In this document: in pieces, positions 1,823 to 23,232 of the stretch
Position numbering within the stretch: position 1 is the stretch's first letter
Layout of the letters: every line of letters begins with the position of its first letter
Assembly (NCBI RefSeq): GCF_000016745.1
Contig: NC_009483.1
Span: 300,001 to 332,000, forward strand
DNA length: 32,000 nt
DNA from: Geotalea uraniireducens Rf4
GTDB taxonomy: Bacteria; Desulfobacterota; Desulfuromonadia; Geobacterales; Geobacteraceae
Direction of reading: 5' to 3'
Position numbers and translations under genes: made by a program
The notes under the pieces: model-generated
Database searches by the model: none
Seen by the model: only the letters and a program-made list of their open reading frames with translations
Told to the model about the DNA's origin: nothing

Positions 1823-2210
1823 AGCGACAACCGATTTTGTCCGGCAGTGGTTCCGCAAGGCGGAACATGATCTGCAAAACATCCGCAACAATCTCGCCGC
1901 TGAGTCGGTGCCTACCGATACGGTTTGCTTCCATGCCCAGCAGGCGATTGAAAAACTTCTCAAAGGTCTGTTGGTTGCGAATGGGAGAAACGTCTCCAAG
2001 ACCCACGATCTCGTGAAGTTGTTGACGGATGTGGCCGATATTATCCCCGAATTGCTGCCGTTTGAGGAGCAGCTTGAAGATATTTCCGAATATGGAGTGG
2101 GTGTCCGTTACCCGGATGACTTTTATGAACCCACACTGGATGAAGCACACCGTGCTTTTGAATTGGCATTGAAAATTGAGGCAATAGTCCTGGATAAGAT
2201 TCAACCTTGA
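1815..2210 (+). CDS. HEPN domain protein (toxin-like partner of the MNT)
   Basis: The ATG at 1815 overlaps the MNT stop (ATGGATGA). WFRKAEHDL...[10 protein letters not shown]...YGVGVRYPD matches the HEPN (PF05168-like) pattern as I recall it. Confidence 0.75.
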
Positions 2211-2238
2211 ACATAAAGAAACAAGGAGACAATTTGTT

Positions 2239-3471
2239 ATGGCACTGATTAACGACAACTACCTGAAACTGAAGGCGGGCTACCTCTTCCCGGAGATCGG
2301 CCGCCGCGTGCGCGCCTTTGCAGAGGCGAACCCCTCTGCCAAGGTGATCCGCCTGGGGATCGGCGACGTGACGAGACCGCTTGCCCCAGCCGTCCTCAAG
2401 GCGTTCCACGCCGCTGTCGACGATCTCGGCACTACTGACAACTTTGCCGGCTACGGCCCGGAGCAGGGGTACGACTGGCTGATCAACGCCATCATCGAGA
2501 AGTCCTACAAGCCGCTCGGCGTTTCCCTGAAGACGGACGAGATGTTCATCTCCGACGGCTCCAAGTGCGACTGCGCCAACATCCTCGACATCTTCGCCCT
2601 CGACAACGTGGTGGCCATCGGCGACCCGGTCTACCCGGTCTACAACGACACCAACGTCATGATCGGCCGCACCGGCGAGGCGGACGACAAGGGGTATTAC
2701 AAAGGCATCGTCTACATGCCGTGCAACGAGGAGAACCACTTCATCCCCTCTCTCCCCACGGAGAAGGTGGACATCATCTACCTCTGCTTCCCCAACAACC
2801 CGACCGGCACCGTCGCCTCCAGGGCCGAGCTGAAGAAGTGGGTCGACTACGCCAACGCCAACGACGCGGTCATCTTTTTCGACGCAGCCTACGAGGCGTT
2901 CATCACCGATCCCGAAATCCCCCACTCCATCTACGAGATCGAAGGTGCCAAGAAGTGCGCCATCGAGTTCCGCTCCTTCTCCAAGACCGCCGGCTTTACG
3001 GGCGTGCGCTGCGGCCTCGTGGTCGTTCCGGAAGAGGTGATGGGGACGACATCAACAGGCGAGCGGTACAGCTTCAACAAGCTCTGGCTGCGCCGCACCA
3101 CCACCAAGTTCAACGGCGCCTCCTACCCGGTACAGCGGGCCGCAGAAGCAGTCTACTCCGACGAGGGGTGGAAGCAGACGAAAGAGATCATCGACTATTA
3201 CATGGAGAACGCCCGGATCATCCGCGAAGGGATGAAGGAAGCCGGTCTGACTGTCTATGGCGGCGTCAATGCCCCCTACATCTGGCTGAAGACCCCGGCC
3301 GGCATGACCAGCTGGGATTTCTTCGACAAGCTCCTCACCGAGTGCAACGTGGTCGGTACCCCTGGCTCCGGCTTCGGTCCCAGCGGGGAAGGGTACTTTA
3401 GATTGTCGGCCTTCGGCCATCGAGAGAATGTGATTGAGGCGGTGGAGAGGATCAAGAAGAATTTGAAGTAG
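2239..3471 (+). CDS. dapL: LL-diaminopimelate aminotransferase
   Basis: 410 aa. N-terminal [17 protein letters not shown], the [13 protein letters not shown]-lysine motif and the position after dapA-dapB. Confidence 0.9.
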
Positions 3472-3480
3472 CGTATGACA

Positions 3481-3512
3481 GCAAAAGGCGACTGCGATTG
3501 GTCGCCTTTTGC
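3481..3512 (+). terminator. Hairpin terminator after dapL
   Basis: GCAAAAGGCGAC-N8-GTCGCCTTTTGC forms a 12-bp stem 10 nt after the dapL stop. The hairpin sequence is related to that of the repeat family listed below. Confidence 0.55.
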
Positions 3513-3581
3513 ATATCTGGTTTTGACCGATTTCAGACGTTCGATTATAATTGAATTAATCCTTGGCACGAAGGGAACGGT

Positions 3582-3842
3582 ATGCCGGAAATTTCCAGAT
3601 TTTATGGGATTATCGTGGCAATGTACTACGATGAGCATAATCCACCGCATTTTCATGCCCGATATGGCAGCCACGAGGTTATTATCCGTATTAAGGATTT
3701 AGCCCGGATTGCCGGAAGTTTTCCTCCTCGTGCGCTCGGCATGTTGCTGGAATGGACGGCGCTTCATCAAGAGGAAATCATGGACAATTGGACGAGAGCC
3801 AGGAATGACCAGGAGCTGAAGTCTGTTTCACCGCTCGACTAG
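3582..3842 (+). CDS. DUF4160 family protein
   Basis: 86 aa. MPEISRFYGIIVAMYYDEHNPPHFHARYG is the hallmark N-terminus of DUF4160. Confidence 0.8.
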   Translation: MPEISRFYGIIVAMYYDEHNPPHFHARYGSHEVIIRIKDLARIAGSFPPRALGMLLEWTALHQEEIMDNWTRARNDQELKSVSPLD

Positions 3843-3851
3843 GGGGACGCT

Positions 3852-4136
3852 ATGTATTATGACATCAGAGATTTCAAGCATCTTGAGGGGTATCAAGTTG
3901 AGCTCAAGTTTGACGATTCTCGTACGGGCATCGTCGACTTTGGCCGGTACGTAAATCGAGGCGGAGTATTCAGCAGGTTTGCCGATATGGAGTATTTTCG
4001 GCAGGCGGCCATCGAATCAGGTGTTCTATGTTGGCCTGGAGGGGTGGATATAGCCCCGGAAACACTCTATCATGAGGCAACTGGAGAACCTTTACCCATG
4101 TGGATGCATGATGAGGGACAAGGGGAAGCAGCTTGA
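3852..4136 (+). CDS. DUF2442 family protein
   Basis: 94 aa. The pattern ...ELKFDDSRTGIVDF...GGVFSRF...VLCWPGGVDIAPETLY fits DUF2442. It lies 9 nt after the DUF4160 gene, which is the usual pairing. Confidence 0.8.
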   Translation: MYYDIRDFKHLEGYQVELKFDDSRTGIVDFGRYVNRGGVFSRFADMEYFRQAAIESGVLCWPGGVDIAPETLYHEATGEPLPMWMHDEGQGEAA

Positions 4137-4308: not shown

Positions 4309-4608
4309 ATGGTCAGAGACAGAAATGATATTCTTACATTCTTGCAAACACACAAGGATGAAATGGCGCAGCGTTTCGGTGTGGTGAGCGTCGGTCTCTT
4401 CGGCAGTTATGCACGAGGAGAGGCTCGTGAAGATTCTGACATTGACATTGCCATAGAACTAAAGCCCGAAAAGAAATCCTTGAGTAACTTCTTCGGTATT
4501 AGGCGTTATCTTGAGCAGCAGCTGGGCAAGACGGTCGATCTGGGGATAGAGAGCACCTTAAAGCCGTTGGCGCGGAAAATGGTTGCCAAGGAAATCATCC
4601 ATGTCTGA
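4309..4608 (+). CDS. Nucleotidyltransferase (MntA-like antitoxin)
   Basis: 99 aa with GLFGSYARGEAREDSDIDIAIE. Its stop overlaps the start of the DUF86 ORF. Confidence 0.8.
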   Translation: MVRDRNDILTFLQTHKDEMAQRFGVVSVGLFGSYARGEAREDSDIDIAIELKPEKKSLSNFFGIRRYLEQQLGKTVDLGIESTLKPLARKMVAKEIIHV

Positions 4609-4789
4609 GCGTCCACAGCTTCTCTATTGTCAGGACATTCTTGAATCCGGCGCGGCCATCCAGTCGTATGTTCAGGGCATGACCTGTGATGCCTTTGCTC
4701 AGGACCGCATGCGTTACTCGGCGGTGATCCGGGAGTTCGAAATTATCGGCGAGGCAGTAGGCAAGCTGCAAAAATCACAAAAACTATAA
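4601..4789 (+). pseudogene. Truncated DUF86/HepT-like HEPN toxin (N-terminal ~62 aa only)
   Basis: MSERPQLLYCQDILESGAAIQSYV...VIREFEIIGEAVGKL is the DUF86 N-terminal half. The ORF ends where composition turns AT-rich, before the expected R-x4-6-H active-site region. Confidence 0.65.
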
Positions 4790-4804
4790 ATATACGAGGC
4801 TGAA

Positions 4805-5407
4805 ATGAAAATATATTGCGCTGGGCCACTATTTAATCCAAAAGAAAAAGAAGAAATGCAAGAGATAGCGGATATTCTTGAAATGAATGACTTCAAGGTA
4901 TTTCTCCCCCACAGAGATGGTTTGGAATTTAGTAATCTTATGACTACATTTTCAGAAATGGGAATCTCAAATGAAAAAGCTATTCAAGTGCTAAACAAGG
5001 CTATATTTACTCTTGACGTATTTCAGGTCCTTGATAGTGATGGCCTAATTTTGAACATGAATGGACGCGTTCCTGACGAGGGCGCAATGGTTGAAGCTGG
5101 TATCGCTTGGAATGCTGGTAAAGCAATGGTTATATATAAGAACGACGCAAGAACATTGTTAAACGGGAATGATAATCCACTTCTCCTCGGGCTAAGTAAT
5201 TTTGAAACAGTCAGTAAAATATCAGAAATACCAAGTAAGTTTAATTCATTATTGGCAGATGAACCCACACATGGCAAAATAGATAACACCAGAATAAAGA
5301 ATTTGTATAAAAAGGGTGAAGAAGTTTATAAAGTTGCAACATCTAATAAAGATGAAAGCGTAATTTGCCGTGATCTTATGGTTATTTTGGAGGTATGTTG
5401 TGTGTAA
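4805..5407 (+). CDS. Nucleoside 2-deoxyribosyltransferase-like (NDT/deoxyribohydrolase fold) protein
   Basis: 200 aa. MKIYCAGPLFNPKEKEE...VFLPHRDG plus RVPDEGAMVEAGIAWNAGKAMVIY resemble the PF05014 family. GAGG lies 5 nt upstream of the ATG. The gene is AT-rich. Confidence 0.7.
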   Translation: MKIYCAGPLFNPKEKEEMQEIADILEMNDFKVFLPHRDGLEFSNLMTTFSEMGISNEKAIQVLNKAIFTLDVFQVLDSDGLILNMNGRVPDEGAMVEAGIAWNAGKAMVIYKNDARTLLNGNDNPLLLGLSNFETVSKISEIPSKFNSLLADEPTHGKIDNTRIKNLYKKGEEVYKVATSNKDESVICRDLMVILEVCCV

Positions 5408-6557
5408 ACCTTTTGACGAGAAGTTAATATATACAAGTGAATACGCTGCATTGTCAGCGAATTCCAAAGGTAGAGTTAAGGCTTTAGAGCCGGACTCGTA
5501 CAGGACGGAATACCAAAGAGACATCCACAGAATTATTTATTGCCAGTCATTCCGAAGGTTACGCCACAAGACGCAGGTCTTTTTCATGCCGAATAATGAT
5601 CATATTTGCACCAGAATGGAGCATGTTCTTCATGTCTCTTCAGCTTCACGTACTGTCGCACGACATCTCAGGCTTAATGAAGACCTTGTAGAGGCAATAG
5701 GCTTAGGCCATGATTTGGGACATGCTCCATTTGGGCATCATGGTGAACATGTTCTAAACGACATTTCCAAACAGGCAGGACTGAATCAGTCTTTTCAACA
5801 TGAAATGCACGGGCTCAGGGTTATTGATAAGTTAGCAGAATTGGATCGTGAGCCGTCTGCCGGTTTAAATTTAACGTATGAGGTTCGTGATGGAATTGTC
5901 TCTCATTGCGGGGAAGATTTCAAATCAAATACATTGAAACCTTTTGAAGGAGACAAAAATTTAAGTAAAATTGTAGACAAAAAAACTTGCGGCATGCCGT
6001 TAACATATGAAGGATGCATAGTTAGGATTGTTGACAGGATTGCTTATGCAGGCCGAGATGTAGAAGACGCGATTGTAGCTGGTCTCATTGACGATAAAGC
6101 AATACCAAAAGATATTGTCAAAGCGTTGGGACGTAATAACGGTGAAATAATAGGAACCTTACTTGTAGACTTGATTGAGTACAGTAAGAAAAACGAAGGA
6201 GAAATTGGTTTAAGCAAAGAAAAGCACGAACCTTTACAGGCTTTGATTCATTGGAATTACGAGAACATATATACATGTGCGAGGACTGATAAATATAAAA
6301 AGCAGGCTACACTCGCTCTGCAAGAGTTATTTTTCAGGTTGGTTTCAGATTTAGAAAGGACTGATCGCCTTACAGCAGGAGTTAAAGAACTTCCTGAAGC
6401 AACTATATATGATGTTTTGGCTACGTTCATTGAAAAAGTTGGTTATACTCCGGAGGATAAAAATGAGCTGATTGTTTTAGATTTTATTTCAGGCATGACA
6501 GATAACTATGTTCTGAAATGTCTTGACGAGGTCTTTGTTCCAAAATGCATAACTTAA
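5400..6557 (+). CDS. dGTP triphosphohydrolase-like HD-domain protein
   Basis: Motifs YQRDIHRIIYCQSFRRLRHKTQVF, TRMEHVLHVS and GLGHDLGHAPFGHHGE. The likely start is GTG 5400, with GGAGG at 5389-5393; ATG 5370 is an alternative. The start overlaps the upstream stop. Confidence 0.85.
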   Translation: MCKPFDEKLIYTSEYAALSANSKGRVKALEPDSYRTEYQRDIHRIIYCQSFRRLRHKTQVFFMPNNDHICTRMEHVLHVSSASRTVARHLRLNEDLVEAIGLGHDLGHAPFGHHGEHVLNDISKQAGLNQSFQHEMHGLRVIDKLAELDREPSAGLNLTYEVRDGIVSHCGEDFKSNTLKPFEGDKNLSKIVDKKTCGMPLTYEGCIVRIVDRIAYAGRDVEDAIVAGLIDDKAIPKDIVKALGRNNGEIIGTLLVDLIEYSKKNEGEIGLSKEKHEPLQALIHWNYENIYTCARTDKYKKQATLALQELFFRLVSDLERTDRLTAGVKELPEATIYDVLATFIEKVGYTPEDKNELIVLDFISGMTDNYVLKCLDEVFVPKCIT

Positions 6558-6595
6558 GGAAATATGAGACACACCACCATTTTTAGCTTACCCGG

Positions 6596-6693
6596 ACAGA
6601 GTTCCGGGGACCAGAGTTCCACAGAGTTCCGCCAGAGTTCCGCCAGAGTTCCGCCAGAGTTCCGCCAGAGTTCCGCCAGAGTTCCGCCAGAGT
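6596..6693 (+). repeat. 11-bp tandem repeat array (CAGAGTTCCGC), left part
   Basis: About 8.5 head-to-tail units are visible. The first units are degenerate (CAGAGTTCCGGGGAC, CAGAGTTCCA). The array is cut by the IS256-family element. Confidence 0.9.
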
Positions 6694-8018
6694 GAGGGTG
6701 TAAAAAGGTTTGTGTAAATGGTCATTAGGGGGTACACCAAGTTACCCTAAGGAGATCACATGACTATTAACACCGACGTAATCGACGACCTGCTCAAACA
6801 TTACAAGACCCCCGAAGAGATTCTAGGGGAAAACGGGCTGCTGAAGCAATTGACCAAGGCTGTTCTTCAGCGGGCGCTCCAGGCTGAAATGACACTGCAT
6901 CTCGGCCACGAGAAGCATGCTTCCGTTTCCGCCAAGGGTGGCAATGCACGCAATGGCTCGTCGGCAAAGACCATCAAAGGCGATTTCGGCACCATGCCGA
7001 TTGAGGTCCCTCGTGACCGGGATAGCAGCTTTGAACCAGTCATCATTCCCAAGGGCCAAACCCGGTTCGCCGAGTTCGATGATAAGATTATCTCTCTGTA
7101 CTCCCGCGGGCTTACCACTCGTGAGATCCAGGGTCACTTGGAGGAAATCTACGGAGTTGAGGTATCCCCCGCCCTGATTTCAATAGTGACTGAAGCAGTA
7201 GCTGAAGAGGTCAAAACCTGGCAGAACCGCCCGTTGGATGCGCTTTATCCCATCGTCTACATGGATGCCATCAGGGTCAAAGCCAGAGGCAATGGCCATG
7301 TTGTGAACAAGGCTGTCTATCTGGCCATCGGCATCAACACAGACGGCGCCAAAGAAGTTCTGGGAATGTGGGTTTCCGAGAACGAAGGTGCCAAGTTCTG
7401 GCTTCAGGTTGTTACCGAACTAAAGAACCGTGGTGTCCAGGACATCTTCATTGCCTGCGTTGACGGCCTAAAGGGGTTCCCTGAGGCCATAGAGACCGTT
7501 TTCCCGAACACTCAGGTCCAGCTTTGCATCGTCCACATGGTACGCAACTCTTTGAAATTCGTCTCGTGGAAGCAGCGTAAAGAGGTCGCTGCTGATCTGA
7601 AGGTAATCTACCAGTCGGCGACAGCAGAGCAGGCCGAAATGGAACTGACGGCATTTGAGGCGAAGTGGGATAAAACGCACCCGACTATCGGCCAGTCATG
7701 GCGCCGGAACTGGGAGCAAATCACGCCTTTTTTCGCTTATCCTGCTGATATCAGAAAGGTTATCTATACCACCAACGCCATTGAATCCCTGAATATGTCG
7801 CTCAGAAAGGTGACCAAAAACCGGGGTTCGTTTCCCAATGACGAGGCAATGCTCAAGCTACTTTATCTGGCGCTGAAAAACATCGCGAAGAAATGGACCC
7901 TGCCGATCAGGGACTGGAAGGCTGCGATGAATCGCTTTTCCATCCTTTTTGAAGACAGAATGCCAAGCTATTAAAAACCGGGAACCAAAACCATTTACAC
8001 AAAACTATTGACAGGCCC
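6694..8018 (+). mobile_element. IS256-family insertion sequence (~1.3 kb)
   Basis: Imperfect terminal inverted repeats are GAGGGTGTAAAAAGGTTTGTGTAAATGG (left) and CCATTTACACAAAACTATTGACAGGCCC (right). CCAGAGT occurs on both flanks, but this possible target duplication is ambiguous because the element sits in a tandem array. Confidence 0.8.
6760..7974 (+). CDS. IS256-family (Mutator-type) transposase
   Basis: 404 aa. The N-terminal ...LLKQLTKAVLQRALQAEMTLHLGHEKH... and the ...YTTNAIESLN... motif are typical of IS256 transposases. Confidence 0.95.
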   Translation: MTINTDVIDDLLKHYKTPEEILGENGLLKQLTKAVLQRALQAEMTLHLGHEKHASVSAKGGNARNGSSAKTIKGDFGTMPIEVPRDRDSSFEPVIIPKGQTRFAEFDDKIISLYSRGLTTREIQGHLEEIYGVEVSPALISIVTEAVAEEVKTWQNRPLDALYPIVYMDAIRVKARGNGHVVNKAVYLAIGINTDGAKEVLGMWVSENEGAKFWLQVVTELKNRGVQDIFIACVDGLKGFPEAIETVFPNTQVQLCIVHMVRNSLKFVSWKQRKEVAADLKVIYQSATAEQAEMELTAFEAKWDKTHPTIGQSWRRNWEQITPFFAYPADIRKVIYTTNAIESLNMSLRKVTKNRGSFPNDEAMLKLLYLALKNIAKKWTLPIRDWKAAMNRFSILFEDRMPSY

Positions 8019-8090
8019 CCAGAGTTCCGCCAGAGTTCCGCCAGAGGATTCCGCCAGAGGATTCCGAGGGGATTCCGGGATTCCGAGGGG
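8019..8090 (+). repeat. Continuation of the 11-bp tandem array, degenerating into GGATTCCG units
   Basis: Two CAGAGTTCCGC units are followed by CAGAGGATTCCGC, CAGAGGATTCCGAGG, GGATTCCG and GGATTCCGAGGGGAC. The last unit merges into copy A of the composite element. Confidence 0.85.
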
Positions 8091-13758: not shown

Positions 13759-15688
13759 GTGCGCCAGGCATGGCGCGTGGCGCGTAAGCGCCATCCAATT
13801 GGGTATGGTGCCTGATTGGTGACTTGGAGGTGAAAGTCCTCTTCGGACCCTGATGGTGGGAACCGATAGCTGAACAGCAAGGGTGTCCGGGGCGACCCGG
13901 AATCTGAAGGAAGCTGTAGGCAAAGTCCTGGCCCGACGAACAGGAATCGCATATGAGGCAGCCACATCTGGGCGAGAAGGCAAACAGATTCAAAGCCCGA
14001 TAACCATCCAGAAAGATGTGGAAGTAGATGCGGCGGGTATATGGGATGAAGGTCACGCGCATTACCCTGGGAGGTCTGTCAACCTGCCTTGTGCTACCGG
14101 CATCGAGAGGTGCCGGGATGGGTTGGCAGAAGTCAGCAGAGGCCATACGAGTCGGAATAACCGACCGACAAAGGGCCGAACTTGAAGTAAGCGGACAGGA
14201 GCCTTGAGTTTCGATGACGACAGGAGCAGCAGAAGGCCGGGTTGGGATACCCGGCGCCAGCCCGGAGGGTAGCGGTTGGAAACCGCGAGAGAAAGGGAGA
14301 GGTGCGGCAAACGTCACGGGAAGGAAAGCAGCTCACTGGCCGGAAGCGGCAACGGGACTGATGGAGAAGATCGTCAGTCGCGGCAACATGATGGCGGCAT
14401 ACTCACGGGTAATGCGCAACAAGGGAGCGCCCGGCGTCGATAACATGCCGGTAACGGCCCTGAAGGGCTACCTACAGGAGGAATGGCCGCGCATCAGAGA
14501 AGAACTGCTGACGGGAACGTATCACCCGCAACCGGTGCGGAAAGTAGAAATTCCCAAACCGGGAGGCGGCACACGGATGCTGGGAATTCCCACCGTCCTT
14601 GACCGACTCATTCAGCAGGCGGTGCATCAAGTTTTGAGCCCGCTGTTCGACCCTGGTTTCTCCATAAGTTCCCACGGGTTTCGCCCTGGACGGAGCGCCC
14701 ATCAAGCGATCAAGGCAGCTCGGAAGTATGTAGAGAGCGGCCTTAGGTGGGTGGTTGACATTGACCTTGAGAAATTTTTCGACCGAGTCCACCACGACAC
14801 CCTTATGTCGCTGGTGAAACGCAAGGTTGGAGACCGTCTGGTGCTGTCCCTTATCGACAGCTACCTTAAGGCAGGGATACTTGAAGGAGGAGTGACGTCA
14901 CCCCGGTTGGAAGGCACGCCGCAAGGCGGGCCTCTCTCGCCGCTGCTGTCCAACATCCTCCTCGACGAACTGGACAAGAAACTGGAAAGAAGGGGCCATA
15001 AGTTCTGCCGCTATGCCGACGACGCAAATATCTATGTTGCAACGAGGAGAAGCGGCGAGCGTGTCATGGCCTCAATTACCGGCTACCTGTCCGAGCGGCT
15101 CAAGCTCACGGTCAACCAGGGCAAAAGCGCGGTTGACCGTCCGTGGAAAAGGTCGTTTCTGAGTTACAGCATGACCCGGCACCGCAAACCGCGGCTTACC
15201 GTGGCCAAGAAAGCGGCTGCCAGGCTCAAGGCCAACCTCAAGACGATCTTTAGGCGGGGAAGGGGTCAGAACATCCAAACCACCGTTGAAGAGACAACCC
15301 CGAAACTTAGGGGTTGGTTAAACTACTTTCGGTACGCGGAAGTAAAAGGCATCTTCGAGGAACTGGACGGATGGCTGAGACGTAAACTGCGTCGCATTCT
15401 CTGGAAGCAGTGGAAGCGCCCCAAGACGCGAGCAAAGAAACTGATGCGGCGGGGATTATCGGAGGCAACTGCATGGCGGTCGGCCACAAACGGCCGCGGC
15501 CCCTGGTGGAATGCAGGGGCCGCGCATATGAACAAAGCTGTTCCGAAATTCTACTTCGACAAACTGGGGCTGGTATCACTCATAGACCAGCTTCACCGAC
15601 TTCAACGTACTTCATGAACCGCCGTGTACGGAACCGTACGCACGGTGGTGTGGGAGGACGGCGGGAGCAATCCCGCCTCCTACCCGAT
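13759..15688 (+). mobile_element. Group II intron, class-C-like (~1.93 kb)
   Basis: 5' GTGCGCC at 13759. The RT/maturase ORF lies in domain IV. Domain V (15619-15648) is CCGCCGTGTACGG-AACC-GTACGCACGGTGG, with CGC at triad positions 2-4 and a 2-nt bulge. Domain VI is a hairpin with bulged A 15682, 7 nt from a 3' end ...CCCGAT. The intron sits directly after a terminator hairpin. Confidence 0.85.
14361..15617 (+). CDS. Group II intron reverse transcriptase/maturase (no endonuclease domain evident)
   Basis: MEKIVSRGNMMAAYSRVMRNKGAPGVD..., the RT block ...FCRYADDANIYV (YADD) and maturase X ...LRGWLNYFRYAE. The ATG at 14361 is preferred over 14214, which lies in ribozyme sequence. Confidence 0.9.
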   Translation: MEKIVSRGNMMAAYSRVMRNKGAPGVDNMPVTALKGYLQEEWPRIREELLTGTYHPQPVRKVEIPKPGGGTRMLGIPTVLDRLIQQAVHQVLSPLFDPGFSISSHGFRPGRSAHQAIKAARKYVESGLRWVVDIDLEKFFDRVHHDTLMSLVKRKVGDRLVLSLIDSYLKAGILEGGVTSPRLEGTPQGGPLSPLLSNILLDELDKKLERRGHKFCRYADDANIYVATRRSGERVMASITGYLSERLKLTVNQGKSAVDRPWKRSFLSYSMTRHRKPRLTVAKKAAARLKANLKTIFRRGRGQNIQTTVEETTPKLRGWLNYFRYAEVKGIFEELDGWLRRKLRRILWKQWKRPKTRAKKLMRRGLSEATAWRSATNGRGPWWNAGAAHMNKAVPKFYFDKLGLVSLIDQLHRLQRTS

Positions 15689-23109: not shown

Positions 23110-23232
23110 AAATCAAGCAGATAGACGATACTACTAAACCATCCGCGAGGATGGGACGGAAAGCCACAGGATCTCCAGAAGACAGCCGGGTCGCCGAAAT
23201 ATCTCTCCTGATATTCGGTCCCGGCTTTTTTC
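23110..23232 (+). promoter_or_regulatory. GEMM-I-like cyclic-dinucleotide riboswitch candidate with an intrinsic terminator expression platform
   Basis: AAACC-[CCATCC GCGA GGATGG]-GACGGAAAGCC (23136-23165) matches the GEMM-I core AAACC-hairpin(GNRA)-GGGACGCAAAGCC. The 3' box AGCCGGGTCGCCGA resembles AGCGGGGTTACCGA of the Vc2 aptamer. It overlaps the terminator AGCCGGGTCGCCGAAATATC-loop-GATATTCGGTCCCGGCT plus T6 (23184-23231). Confidence 0.55.

Follow-up and report, generated by a model that had tools for sequence, protein, structure and literature searches.

Triphosphohydrolases turn dNTPs directly into deoxynucleosides, which are in turn the substrates of nucleoside 2-deoxyribosyltransferases (NDTs), and Dgt-type dNTPases are widespread in bacteria. 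The physiological roles of most bacterial dGTPases are not known, according to the study in which defensive dGTPases were discovered (bioRxiv 10.1101/2021.04.26.441389); membership of the defensive Sp-dGTPase family was defined there by a length of >400 aa and a mutual coverage of ≥90% with Sp-dGTPase. Deoxynucleoside salvage is supplied in Trypanosoma brucei by HD52, a SAMHD1 orthologue (PMC10208901), and the Borrelia NDT BB0426 is central in purine salvage (PMC2764106). On contigs of the dZ system, an NDT domain co-occurs with DatZ and DNA pol A and is not directly colocalized with PurZ (bioRxiv 10.1101/2025.10.22.683976). No description of a gene pair that joins an NDT to a dNTPase was found in the literature that we searched. 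The two-gene, AT-rich, foreign cassette of Geotalea uraniireducens that we analyzed, which lies in a stretch of DNA of 32,000 nucleotides (the window), is such a pair, and it looks like an undescribed module for dNTP breakdown and salvage rather than a proven anti-phage system.

The cassette is set apart by its composition. The G+C counts of the original prediction (19/60 at positions 4801 to 4860 and 20/60 at 5941 to 6000, against 39/60 at 2581 to 2640) proved exact, and the segment from 4805 to 6557 has a GC content of 0.382 versus a window mean of 0.553, the minimum among all 1.75-kb sliding windows (mean, 0.552; standard deviation, 0.051). The block holds, as anticipated, two ORFs on the same (forward) strand, ORF1 at 4805 to 5407 and ORF2 at 5400 to 6557, and every motif that had been quoted for them was found in the translations. 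The onset of the AT-rich block falls in the region from 4768 to 4804 of the forward strand, within a truncated hepT gene; reading of the sequence places both the left junction and the ribosome-binding region of ORF1 here, with GAGG at 4796 to 4799, 5 nt ahead of the ORF1 ATG at 4805, and no promoter-like site above shuffle expectation was detected in this region. The longest form of ORF2 opens with a GTG at 5370, but an in-frame GTG at 5400 follows by 6 nt a Shine-Dalgarno sequence, GGAGG (5389 to 5393, forward strand), that lies inside the 3' end of ORF1. The start at 5400 is backed by homologues with an ATG at the aligned position and by a 93%-identical relative (L083), for which an independent gene call gives a protein of 385 aa and the same 8-nt overlap. 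This overlap, which on the forward strand runs from the GTG at 5400 to the end of the ORF1 stop codon (TAA, 5405 to 5407), couples the translation of the two genes, in agreement with the original prediction. Searches for promoters of the pair gave nothing beyond shuffle expectation, no terminator was found between or after the two ORFs, and when the window and ten loci were scanned with Rfam at its gathering cutoffs, neither a riboswitch nor any other RNA element turned up at the pair.

Several features suggest that the Geotalea pair is a recently imported accessory copy that was acquired horizontally. The hepT ORF (4598 to 4789, forward strand) matches only positions 1 to 47 of the 120 of the Pfam HepT-like profile and is thus truncated where the AT-rich block begins, marking the left insertion boundary as had been proposed, while its MntA-type nucleotidyltransferase partner (4309 to 4608) is intact. 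The surroundings had been described as three TA-like pairs and two IS elements; we located two TA-like pairs, DUF4160/DUF2442 and MntA/HepT', on the upstream side and two transposases, one of the IS256 type and one DDE_Tnp_1, on the downstream side, and a third TA-like pair was not located. To the right lies an unstranded region from 6611 to 8059 in which an 11-bp tandem array, CCAGAGTTCCG (6611 to 6693 and 8019 to 8059), is split by an IS256-family element with inverted repeats at 6699 to 6722 and 7990 to 8013 and a transposase at 6760 to 7974. In a 90%-identical Geobacteraceae copy (L001), similarity to the window spans exactly both ORFs, from 4804 to 6557; because it starts at 4804, nothing upstream should belong to the transferred unit, and because it stops at 6557, neither should the tandem array or the IS256 element. 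The Geobacteraceae copies occupy three contexts, namely, the TA/IS island, a site beside a BglII restriction-modification system, which L001 follows, and a site beside another HD protein. GC3 is 0.33 in the Geotalea pair versus 0.87 in dapL, and these Geobacteraceae copies appear to be mobile and recently transferred.

ORF1 (200 aa) is predicted to be an NDT-family enzyme with its catalytic residues kept. The family assignment of the original prediction held, with PF05014 matching residues 3 to 118 at 62.7 bits against the Pfam gathering cutoff of 28.8 bits. The AF2 model (pLDDT, 84.7) and a fold search resolve an NDT core of approximately residues 1 to 136 and a helical C-terminal extension of about 60 residues that is not present in solved NDTs. 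Y4, D71, D91, E97, and N124 do not vary among 17 homologues, and the catalytic Glu in its D-x-G-x-x-x-E-x-G motif is present together with the active-site Tyr and Asp. Y4, D71, and E97 correspond to Y7, D62, and E88 of the Chroococcidiopsis thermalis NDT, positions that are named in PDB mutant entries; we take E97 to be the nucleophile because the aligned E88 has been mutated (E88Q and E88A entries) and the C. thermalis NDT has also been captured ribosylated (8qc0). The best PDB matches by both sequence and fold were the NDTs of Desulfotalea psychrophila and C. thermalis, and the top 25 Foldseek matches in the PDB comprised only these two proteins and 7m5h of Enterococcus faecalis, which is titled "conserved protein" and named nucleoside 2-deoxyribosyltransferase in the sequence search. 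Target-normalized TM-scores from Foldseek reached 0.86 and lay between 0.81 and 0.86 for 7o62. The NMP/dNMP N-glycosidases MilB, BcmB, and DNPH1 ranked below the NDTs in both sequence and fold searches, and significant E values in the sequence searches were confined to nucleoside transferases.

ORF2 (385 aa) is in all likelihood a Dgt-type dNTP triphosphohydrolase with all of its metal ligands. Its earlier designation as dGTPase-like was borne out by TIGR01353 (167.6 bits versus a cutoff of 152.35) and by matches to HD (42.5 bits) and HD_assoc (26.5 bits). The ligands H75, H104, D105, and D212 (H...HD...D) are invariant in 15 homologues, and the best PDB match was 2dqb, a Thermus thermophilus dNTPase (1.8e-41). 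The protein fell below every equivalog cutoff, NF002327 coming closest (323 versus 393 bits) and the other equivalogs scoring lower.

The two genes belong together far beyond this genome. An ORF2 homologue lies directly downstream, on the same strand, in 55 of the 76 evaluable genomic loci with an ORF1 relative, and the pair is present in at least nine bacterial phyla, although the locus search relies on exact peptide patterns and the counts are not a measure of prevalence within phyla. Among genomic pair loci with both genes called, the ORFs overlap in 44/47 when longest-ORF starts are used for the second gene; the check suggested with the original prediction, whether the genes recur elsewhere as an overlapping pair, was therefore passed strongly. 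The pairwise divergences of ORF1 and ORF2 correlate (r = 0.75). At six further loci of the 76, the downstream slot is taken by a nonorthologous dNTPase of the SAMHD1/EF1143 type (HD plus HD_assoc_2), so that an NDT relative is accompanied by a dNTPase of either lineage in 61/76; the NDTs at these six loci form a separate clade, and with the SAMHD1-type partner this NDT family has been joined to a dNTP triphosphohydrolase a second time, independently. Since the Dgt-partnered NDTs form one clade, their association would be a single ancient event kept by selection rather than many independent ones, and among the pairings only the SAMHD1-type one is independent. A metagenome search from ORF2 gave 46 paired and 24 unpaired relatives (46/70 with enough upstream sequence), a further 11 having too little upstream sequence to judge. 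In these metagenomes all but two or three relatives at identities of at least about 48% were paired, and relatives lacking the NDT partner began at about 44 to 50% identity; the clade in which ORF2 falls is marked by an NDT gene upstream. No third conserved gene was found beside the pair, and modification, biosynthesis, and signaling genes were not conserved nearby.

NDT-dNTPase fusions were sought among 148 representatives of the family after clustering at 50% identity. A single candidate NDT-Dgt fusion, P0169, has 620 aa (48% identity to ORF1 over residues 3 to 161 and 35% to ORF2 over residues 239 to 616), but an Arg/Ser/Pro-rich linker of about 75 residues stands in place of the NDT C terminus and looks like the product of a frameshift. 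About 30 of the 148 are at least 380 aa long, and most of these show two NDT-domain matches, as apparent tandem NDT-NDT proteins.

The reading that we favor, with a probability of about 0.55, is that the pair constitutes a self-contained, horizontally acquired, two-enzyme module for deoxynucleotide breakdown whose most likely role in most lineages is control and rebalancing of dNTP pools together with deoxynucleoside salvage. ORF2, whose family and active site are read from its sequence, would strip the triphosphate from one or more dNTPs, yielding a free deoxynucleoside and triphosphate. Glu97 of ORF1, the family, fold, and residues of which are set out above, would then attack C1' of the deoxynucleoside released by ORF2, its presumed substrate, freeing the base, and the enzyme would hand the deoxyribosyl group on to a different base, with transfer to water as a slower alternative. 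Both enzymes would be made together by way of the 8-nt start/stop overlap, and the net effect would be to drain one dNTP pool while deoxyribose is redistributed or disposed of; in most carrier lineages this would be a SAMHD1-like housekeeping role and not that of a dedicated defense-island system. The nearest characterized relatives of ORF1 catalyze a reversible transfer in which one base takes the place of another, a property at odds with the irreversible destruction that had been envisaged. For one large Dgt clade, the NDT partner provides a testable hypothesis, namely, that the enzyme supplies deoxynucleosides to a transferase, so that a dNTP would be converted first to its deoxynucleoside and then to a different one. 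If this is true, an additional pathway for rebalancing dNTP pools would operate in slow-growing anaerobes, and a ready-made enzyme pair would be at hand for biocatalytic nucleoside synthesis.

The original prediction was of a dedicated nucleotide-depletion system directed against phages or mobile elements, in which the dGTPase would strip dGTP or other dNTPs on infection and the NDT-like enzyme would block recovery by removing or swapping the base; we regard this as possible but unlikely. It has precedents, in that stand-alone dGTPases defend via dGTP depletion, with accumulation of deoxyguanosine (bioRxiv 10.1101/2021.04.26.441389), and retron defense uses NDT-like domains as effectors (PMC13276650). 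It is also favored by the nearly full-length fit of ORF2 to the PADLOC dGTPase model (203 bits; 1.8e-60), by the foreign character of the Geotalea copy and its position amid TA and IS elements, and by the BglII restriction-modification system that precedes the 90%-identical copy. An ORF2 relative of 61% identity that lacks an NDT partner has an Eco57I-type restriction-modification gene on one side and a GmrSD-like gene on the other, surroundings that are a clear defense island. The pair also has a lower GC3 than its flanks in 31/32 loci (median, -0.17), and this holds even where the block is syntenic and vertically inherited; such low GC3 is more typical of accessory or defense genes.

The neighborhoods, surveyed at two genes per side, argue against a defensive role. 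The 159 neighboring proteins at 47 loci are overwhelmingly housekeeping, with 6PGD (9), aminotransferases, dnaX/holB (6), tmk (3), and recR (2) recurring and nrdR-nrdD-nrdG immediately upstream of the pair in an anammox genome; the exceptions were the window itself, L001, and L096. PADLOC matches among these neighbors were a handful and mostly generic, enrichment of the ORF2 family beside known defense genes was not observed in this set, and when all flanking ORFs of the closest relatives were scanned with PADLOC, the matches were mainly generic ones of the helicase/SMC type, together with a second Dgt paralogue. Homologous pairs thus sit largely in the housekeeping settings that the original prediction had named as evidence against it, rather than in variable islands, and their synteny is stable across species, that with gnd being kept in seven (gnd, 83 to 92% identical). 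In one clade of ORF2 relatives that lack the NDT partner, the neighbor is a YfbR-like 5'-deoxynucleotidase. The pair is absent from the phages and plasmids searched: tblastn of ORF1 was negative for all 50,697 phage records and, on plasmids, gave only distant, partial NDTs without the pair. A scan of 2.9 million IMG/VR contigs gave 2 loci, neither paired; at one of them, on a putative prophage contig, an NDT homologue that lacks a dNTPase partner is flanked by a tail-like gene and an integrase. The proteins themselves likewise tell against defense: ORF2 falls below the NCBIfam anti-phage dGTPase model NF041026 (127.6 versus 400 bits, with partial coverage) and short of the length criterion of the validated defensive family, ORF1 has no significant match among the PADLOC models (its sole match, with an E value of 0.033, is to an unrelated region), and the characterized relatives of ORF1 act reversibly. 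Distant dGTPase homologues, moreover, lie beside defense genes in only 10% of cases (bioRxiv 10.1101/2021.04.26.441389). Automated defense annotation may label ORF2 "dGTPase" because of its PADLOC match, a label that the neighborhood evidence does not support. In a variant that we advance tentatively and consider rather improbable, the pair would be a two-enzyme antiviral or anti-mobile-element "SAMHD1 plus" module in which base removal or exchange blocks re-phosphorylation by the phage and the chromosomal copies that look like housekeeping genes are domesticated or dual use; the persistently low GC3, the mobility in Geobacteraceae, the copies next to restriction-modification genes, and the NDT relative on a prophage are compatible with it. 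Were the defense reading true, the pair would represent a new, multienzyme form of nucleotide-depletion immunity.

It is doubtful, on our assessment, that the enzymes are linked by a chain other than that from dNTP to deoxynucleoside to base exchange. ORF1 might, for example, be an N-glycosidase that has dNMPs, dNTPs, or NAD-like molecules as its substrates, the pair might clear or make a noncanonical deoxynucleotide, or ORF1 might be a bound subunit that regulates the hydrolase through its extra C-terminal helices. The PF05014 fold is indeed shared by MilB, BcmB, and DNPH1, found further down the list of fold matches of ORF1, NDT-like retron effectors deplete NAD+ (PMC13276650), the helical extension of about 60 residues is not found in solved NDTs, and in dZ phages an NDT co-occurs with the dATPase DatZ, the two being proposed to bias a specific deoxynucleoside pool (bioRxiv 10.1101/2025.10.22.683976). 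Against this stand the confinement of significant sequence matches of ORF1 to nucleoside transferases and the conservation of the pair alone, with no modification, biosynthesis, or signaling genes near it; a purely regulatory ORF1 is unlikely because the full NDT catalytic set is invariant. That the adjacency is incidental, unrelated nucleotide-metabolism genes having been transferred together, is scarcely credible, as nothing speaks for it except that both families are also found alone, and it is already contradicted by the locus survey, with its 61/76 loci, two dNTPase lineages, conserved overlap, and correlated divergences.

The known NDTs of D. psychrophila (7o62), C. thermalis (8pqp to 8pqt), and Lactobacillus leichmannii have the Pfam family, fold, and catalytic Tyr, Asp, and Glu in common with ORF1, but identity is only about 25%, ORF1 alone carries the additional C-terminal helical residues, and the known enzymes are described as stand-alone salvage enzymes or biocatalysts, whereas ORF1 is partnered with a predicted dNTPase. 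T. thermophilus TT1383 (2dqb), the closest solved Dgt-type protein, shares HD plus HD_assoc, a length of about 380 aa, and the metal ligands with ORF2, which differs from the named Dgt groups in scoring below their equivalog cutoffs and in belonging to a clade with an upstream NDT gene. The anti-phage Sp-dGTPase family belongs to the same superfamily and has the same predicted chemistry (dGTP to dG and PPPi), but its members are single genes of >400 aa that are enriched in defense islands (bioRxiv 10.1101/2021.04.26.441389), whereas ORF2 has 385 aa and an NDT partner. The effector of retron Ec86/Eco1 shows that an NDT-like fold like that of ORF1 can serve in a conflict system; it depletes NAD+, however, and is linked with a reverse transcriptase and with msDNA, while ORF1 matches no NDT-like effector model in PADLOC-DB and has no conserved third gene, and the only reverse transcriptase in the window is that of a group II intron about 9 kb from the pair. 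The NDT and DatZ of dZ phages follow the same logic, an HD dNTP triphosphohydrolase and a PF05014 NDT being proposed to drain one deoxynucleoside pool (bioRxiv 10.1101/2025.10.22.683976). That system is a phage-encoded, counter-defense DNA-modification pathway, and DatZ is a small YfbR-like/HD_3 protein; the Geotalea-type pair is cellular, ORF2 is of the Dgt type, and no phage-borne or PurZ-DatZ-DpoZ-linked pair was found among the phage records or at the two unpaired IMG/VR loci. SAMHD1 and T. brucei HD52 are dNTP triphosphohydrolases that limit or rebalance dNTP pools and feed salvage (PMC10208901), and it is a SAMHD1/EF1143-type enzyme that replaces ORF2 at six loci; these proteins are eukaryotic and have no NDT in a shared operon.

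ORF1 (4805-5407, + strand, 200 aa), 100% identical to a protein assigned by NCBI to Geotalea (Geobacter) uraniireducens, the source of the window, is followed on the same strand by ORF2, the longest form of which begins at 5370; the GTG at 5400, preceded by GGAGG at 5389-5393, overlaps the ORF1 stop by 8 nt, and homologues of ORF2 have an ATG start at the position aligned to it. An independent gene call in L083, a 93%-identical relative, gave an ORF2 product of the same length, 385 aa, and the same 8-nt overlap. The coordinates of the original prediction, as well as its G+C counts of 19, 20, and 39 in three 60-nt lines, proved exact when the sequence was reread and the lines were recounted. 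The GC content of 4805-6557 is 0.382 against a window mean of 0.553, the lowest among all 1.75-kb windows in a sliding-window count and approximately 3.4 standard deviations under the mean.

By membership, ORF1 is an enzyme of the nucleoside 2-deoxyribosyltransferase (NDT) family with an intact active site. It scored 62.7 bits against Pfam Nuc_deoxyrib_tr (cut-off, 28.8), and its best PDB sequence matches were the nucleoside 2'-deoxyribosyltransferases of Desulfotalea psychrophila and Chroococcidiopsis thermalis; these NDTs also came first (TM-score, ≤0.86) in a fold search with an AlphaFold model built from 17 homologues (pLDDT, 84.7), with the CMP/hmCMP glycosidases MilB and BcmB, the L. leichmannii NDT, and DNPH1 at lower ranks. 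In an ungapped alignment, Y4, D71, and E97 of ORF1 correspond to Y7, D62, and E88 of the C. thermalis NDT, the residues mutated in its deposited structures, and Y4, D71, D91, E97, and N124 are invariant across homologues at 53 to 90% identity. Three additional C-terminal helices (approximately residues 139 to 194) distinguish ORF1 from the solved NDTs. ORF2, in turn, is by family a Dgt-type dNTP triphosphohydrolase whose metal ligands (H75, H104, D105, and D212) are intact and invariant among homologues. Its profile matches were to HD and HD_assoc domains, it passed the TIGR01353 subfamily cut-off (167.6 versus 152.35) and reached no equivalog cut-off (best, NF002327; 323 versus 393), and its nearest solved relative is the Thermus thermophilus dNTPase 2dqb.

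The pairing of these genes is widely conserved. A profile scan with ORF1 of one genome per GTDB species returned 107 relatives, from which 80 loci were kept: an ORF2 homologue (45 to 92% identity) lay directly downstream on the same strand in 55, a different HD protein in 6, and no HD partner in 15, with the contig end too near to judge in the remaining 4. The NDT family sits directly upstream of a dNTP triphosphohydrolase in 61 of 76 evaluable loci, and these hydrolases belong to two non-orthologous lineages. The six alternative partners carry HD and HD_assoc_2 domains, match Enterococcus faecalis EF1143 and SAMHD1 in the PDB, and are no more than 29% identical to ORF2 across the HD core. In the Planctomycetaceae-type clade (L070, L071, L072, L074, L078, and L080), the NDT homologue is followed by an EF1143/SAMHD1-type HD protein of approximately 445 aa, located at about 6.7 to 8.0 kb in most of these loci. 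The ORFs of the pair overlap in 44 of the 47 loci in which both were called, and the pairwise identities among ORF1 homologues are correlated with those among ORF2 homologues (r = 0.75). When NDT domains were placed in a neighbour-joining tree, three groups separated, namely, Dgt-partnered (with two secondary losses), SAMHD1-partnered, and partnerless, the last being mostly NC10/Methylomirabilota. This division into partner-defined clades argues that the association with Dgt reflects one old event maintained by selection and that with the SAMHD1-type protein a second, independent event.

A reverse search of metagenomes from ORF2 found 46 paired and 24 unpaired relatives, with upstream sequence insufficient in another 11; the paired set accounts for all but two or three relatives at ≥~48% identity, and an NDT-less clade begins at 44 to 50%. 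Phylum labels of the hosts comprise Desulfobacterota, Margulisiibacteriota, Spirochaetota, Verrucomicrobiota, Hydrogenedentota, Bacteroidota, Caldisericota, Zixiibacteriota, and Planctomycetota, which form the majority and include one anammox genome. The two domains appear fused in a single 620-aa protein (P0169), the linker of which resembles a frameshift. About 30 of the 148 family representatives, among them P0121, P0123, P0125, P0134, and P0137, are ≥380 aa; most have two NDT-domain matches and are apparently tandem NDT-NDT proteins of approximately 400 to 450 aa, and some carry N-terminal signal-like or long unrelated extensions. The NDTs that lack a dNTPase partner (P0107, P0112, P0117, and that of L009) likewise have hydrophobic N termini.

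Triphosphohydrolases yield deoxynucleosides straight from dNTPs, and NDTs use deoxynucleosides as their substrates; the chemical fit between the two reactions is good, and dNTPases of two independent lineages have been recruited to a place beside this NDT family. The best-supported scheme is a two-step route whose activities and specificities, like any physical complex of the proteins, are inferred: ORF2 would convert a dNTP to deoxynucleoside and triphosphate, and ORF1 would then capture the deoxyribosyl group through Glu97 and transfer it to a second base or to water. The original prediction envisaged irreversible destruction of deoxynucleotides; interconversion is more likely, because the closest characterized relatives of ORF1 are transferases.

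The surroundings of the pair are mostly those of housekeeping genes. Clustering of all flanking ORFs showed that the pair alone is conserved across the locus set, with other neighbours recurring in ≤11 loci. Pfam and PADLOC scans of two genes per side in 47 pair loci (159 proteins) identified 6-phosphogluconate dehydrogenase (9), LarA-like proteins (7), DNA polymerase III delta'/gamma-tau (6), thymidylate kinase (3), and RecR (2), together with DegT-type and class I/II aminotransferases, tRNA synthetases, thiamine genes, and similar functions; PADLOC matches among them were few and mostly generic (one methyltransferase, a kinase, DinG helicase, and SMC). In the anammox genome of "Ca. Subterrananammoxibius" (L079, 2092-7777), the pair is directly preceded, in the same orientation, by nrdR, nrdD, and nrdG (radical-SAM activase), which may form with it a dNTP-supply operon. 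Elsewhere, the pair is found within an ffs-dnaX-recR region (L034), and gnd-[pair] synteny is kept in seven species (gnd, 83 to 92%; ORF1, 56 to 81%; ORF2, 69 to 81% identity). The gene after an NDT-less ORF2 relative in L137 encodes a YfbR-like 5'-deoxynucleotidase. The pair was not found in 50,697 phage records or on plasmids. We suggest from this neighbourhood context that in most hosts the pair most likely serves to limit or rebalance dNTP pools and to support salvage, and we assign the two-step shunt with such a housekeeping role a probability of roughly 0.55. Precedents exist for a dNTPase in pool control and salvage (Trypanosoma brucei HD52; PMC10208901) and for an NDT in salvage (Borrelia; PMC2764106).

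Depletion of nucleotides as an anti-phage measure, the defence role originally proposed, draws on the mobile character of some copies and is in our judgement less likely. Similarity between the window and L001, a 90%-identical Geobacteraceae copy, spans exactly 4804-6557 with unrelated flanks; a BglII endonuclease and an MT-A70 methylase lie upstream of the pair in L001, and L083 offers yet another context. In the window, the cassette takes the place of the 3' part of hepT and adjoins IS256-type and DDE_Tnp_1 transposases. Between dapL and the cassette are a DUF4160/DUF2442 gene pair (3582-4136) and, at 4309-4789, an MntA-type nucleotidyltransferase next to a hepT remnant that keeps only the 5' part of the gene; a third toxin-antitoxin-like pair, as had been predicted, was not found. 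Beyond the cassette, an IS256-family element (6699-8013) interrupts an 11-bp tandem array, CCAGAGTTCCG (6611-6693 and 8019-8059; ~7.6 and 3.5 copies); the element has 24-nt inverted repeats (6699-6722 and 7990-8013) and a transposase gene at 6760-7974. The window also holds a complete group II intron at 13886-15688 (Rfam D1-D4, 13886-14176; D5/6, 15617-15688) with an RT/maturase ORF (14214-15617; RVT_1 and GIIM) and a c-di-GMP-I riboswitch aptamer at 23123-23198 (+ strand; 42.7 bits versus a gathering score of 35).

Within the segment 737-8406 of L096, an NDT-less ORF2 relative (61% identity) has a 1,410-aa Eco57I-type restriction-modification protein on one side and a GmrSD_N protein on the other, a clear defence-island setting; L095 is of the same contig type. 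On an IMG/VR contig (L081), a dNTPase-less NDT homologue at 5953-6624 has as neighbours, judged by eye, an 835-aa tail/host-specificity-like ORF and, on its other side, a tyrosine-integrase-like ORF, a position typical of prophage cargo. A close relative of the pair in L088 is followed by a 455-aa paralogue of the Dgt family (1986-3350, - strand) that shares 28% identity with ORF2 and has a strong PADLOC dGTPase match; the pair in L083 is followed by an HD protein of 476 aa (2413-3840), a distant relative of the SAMHD1-type partner. The GC content of the pair is under that of its flanks in 46 of 48 loci (median, -0.078), and its GC3 is under that of flanking long ORFs in 31 of 32 (median, -0.17; e.g., L011, L043, and L055); low GC3 also holds inside the syntenic gnd-[pair] block, where copies are apparently vertically inherited. 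The Geobacteraceae copies are extreme (pair GC3, 0.31 to 0.33; flanks, 0.87 to 0.90), and the Geotalea module is a recent import. ORF2 matched the PADLOC dGTPase model (203 bits) and failed the NCBIfam anti-phage dGTPase model (127.6 versus 400).

Validated defensive dGTPases are single genes encoding >400 aa, and distant dGTPase homologues lie beside defence genes in only 10% of cases (bioRxiv 10.1101/2021.04.26.441389); ORF2 falls outside that family as defined. Retron NDT-like effectors have no sequence-level relation to ORF1. Full-text literature searches found no account of an operon of the NDT-Dgt or NDT-SAMHD1 type. The enzyme kinds are already known, and it is the conserved coupled arrangement that appears to be undescribed, a finding that gains interest if the defence reading is true. 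The pairing has its nearest analogue in diaminopurine phages, where PF05014 NDTs occur together with DatZ, a small HD dATPase, in a proposed drain of the dA pool (bioRxiv 10.1101/2025.10.22.683976), but that system is phage-borne and its HD family is other than that of ORF2.
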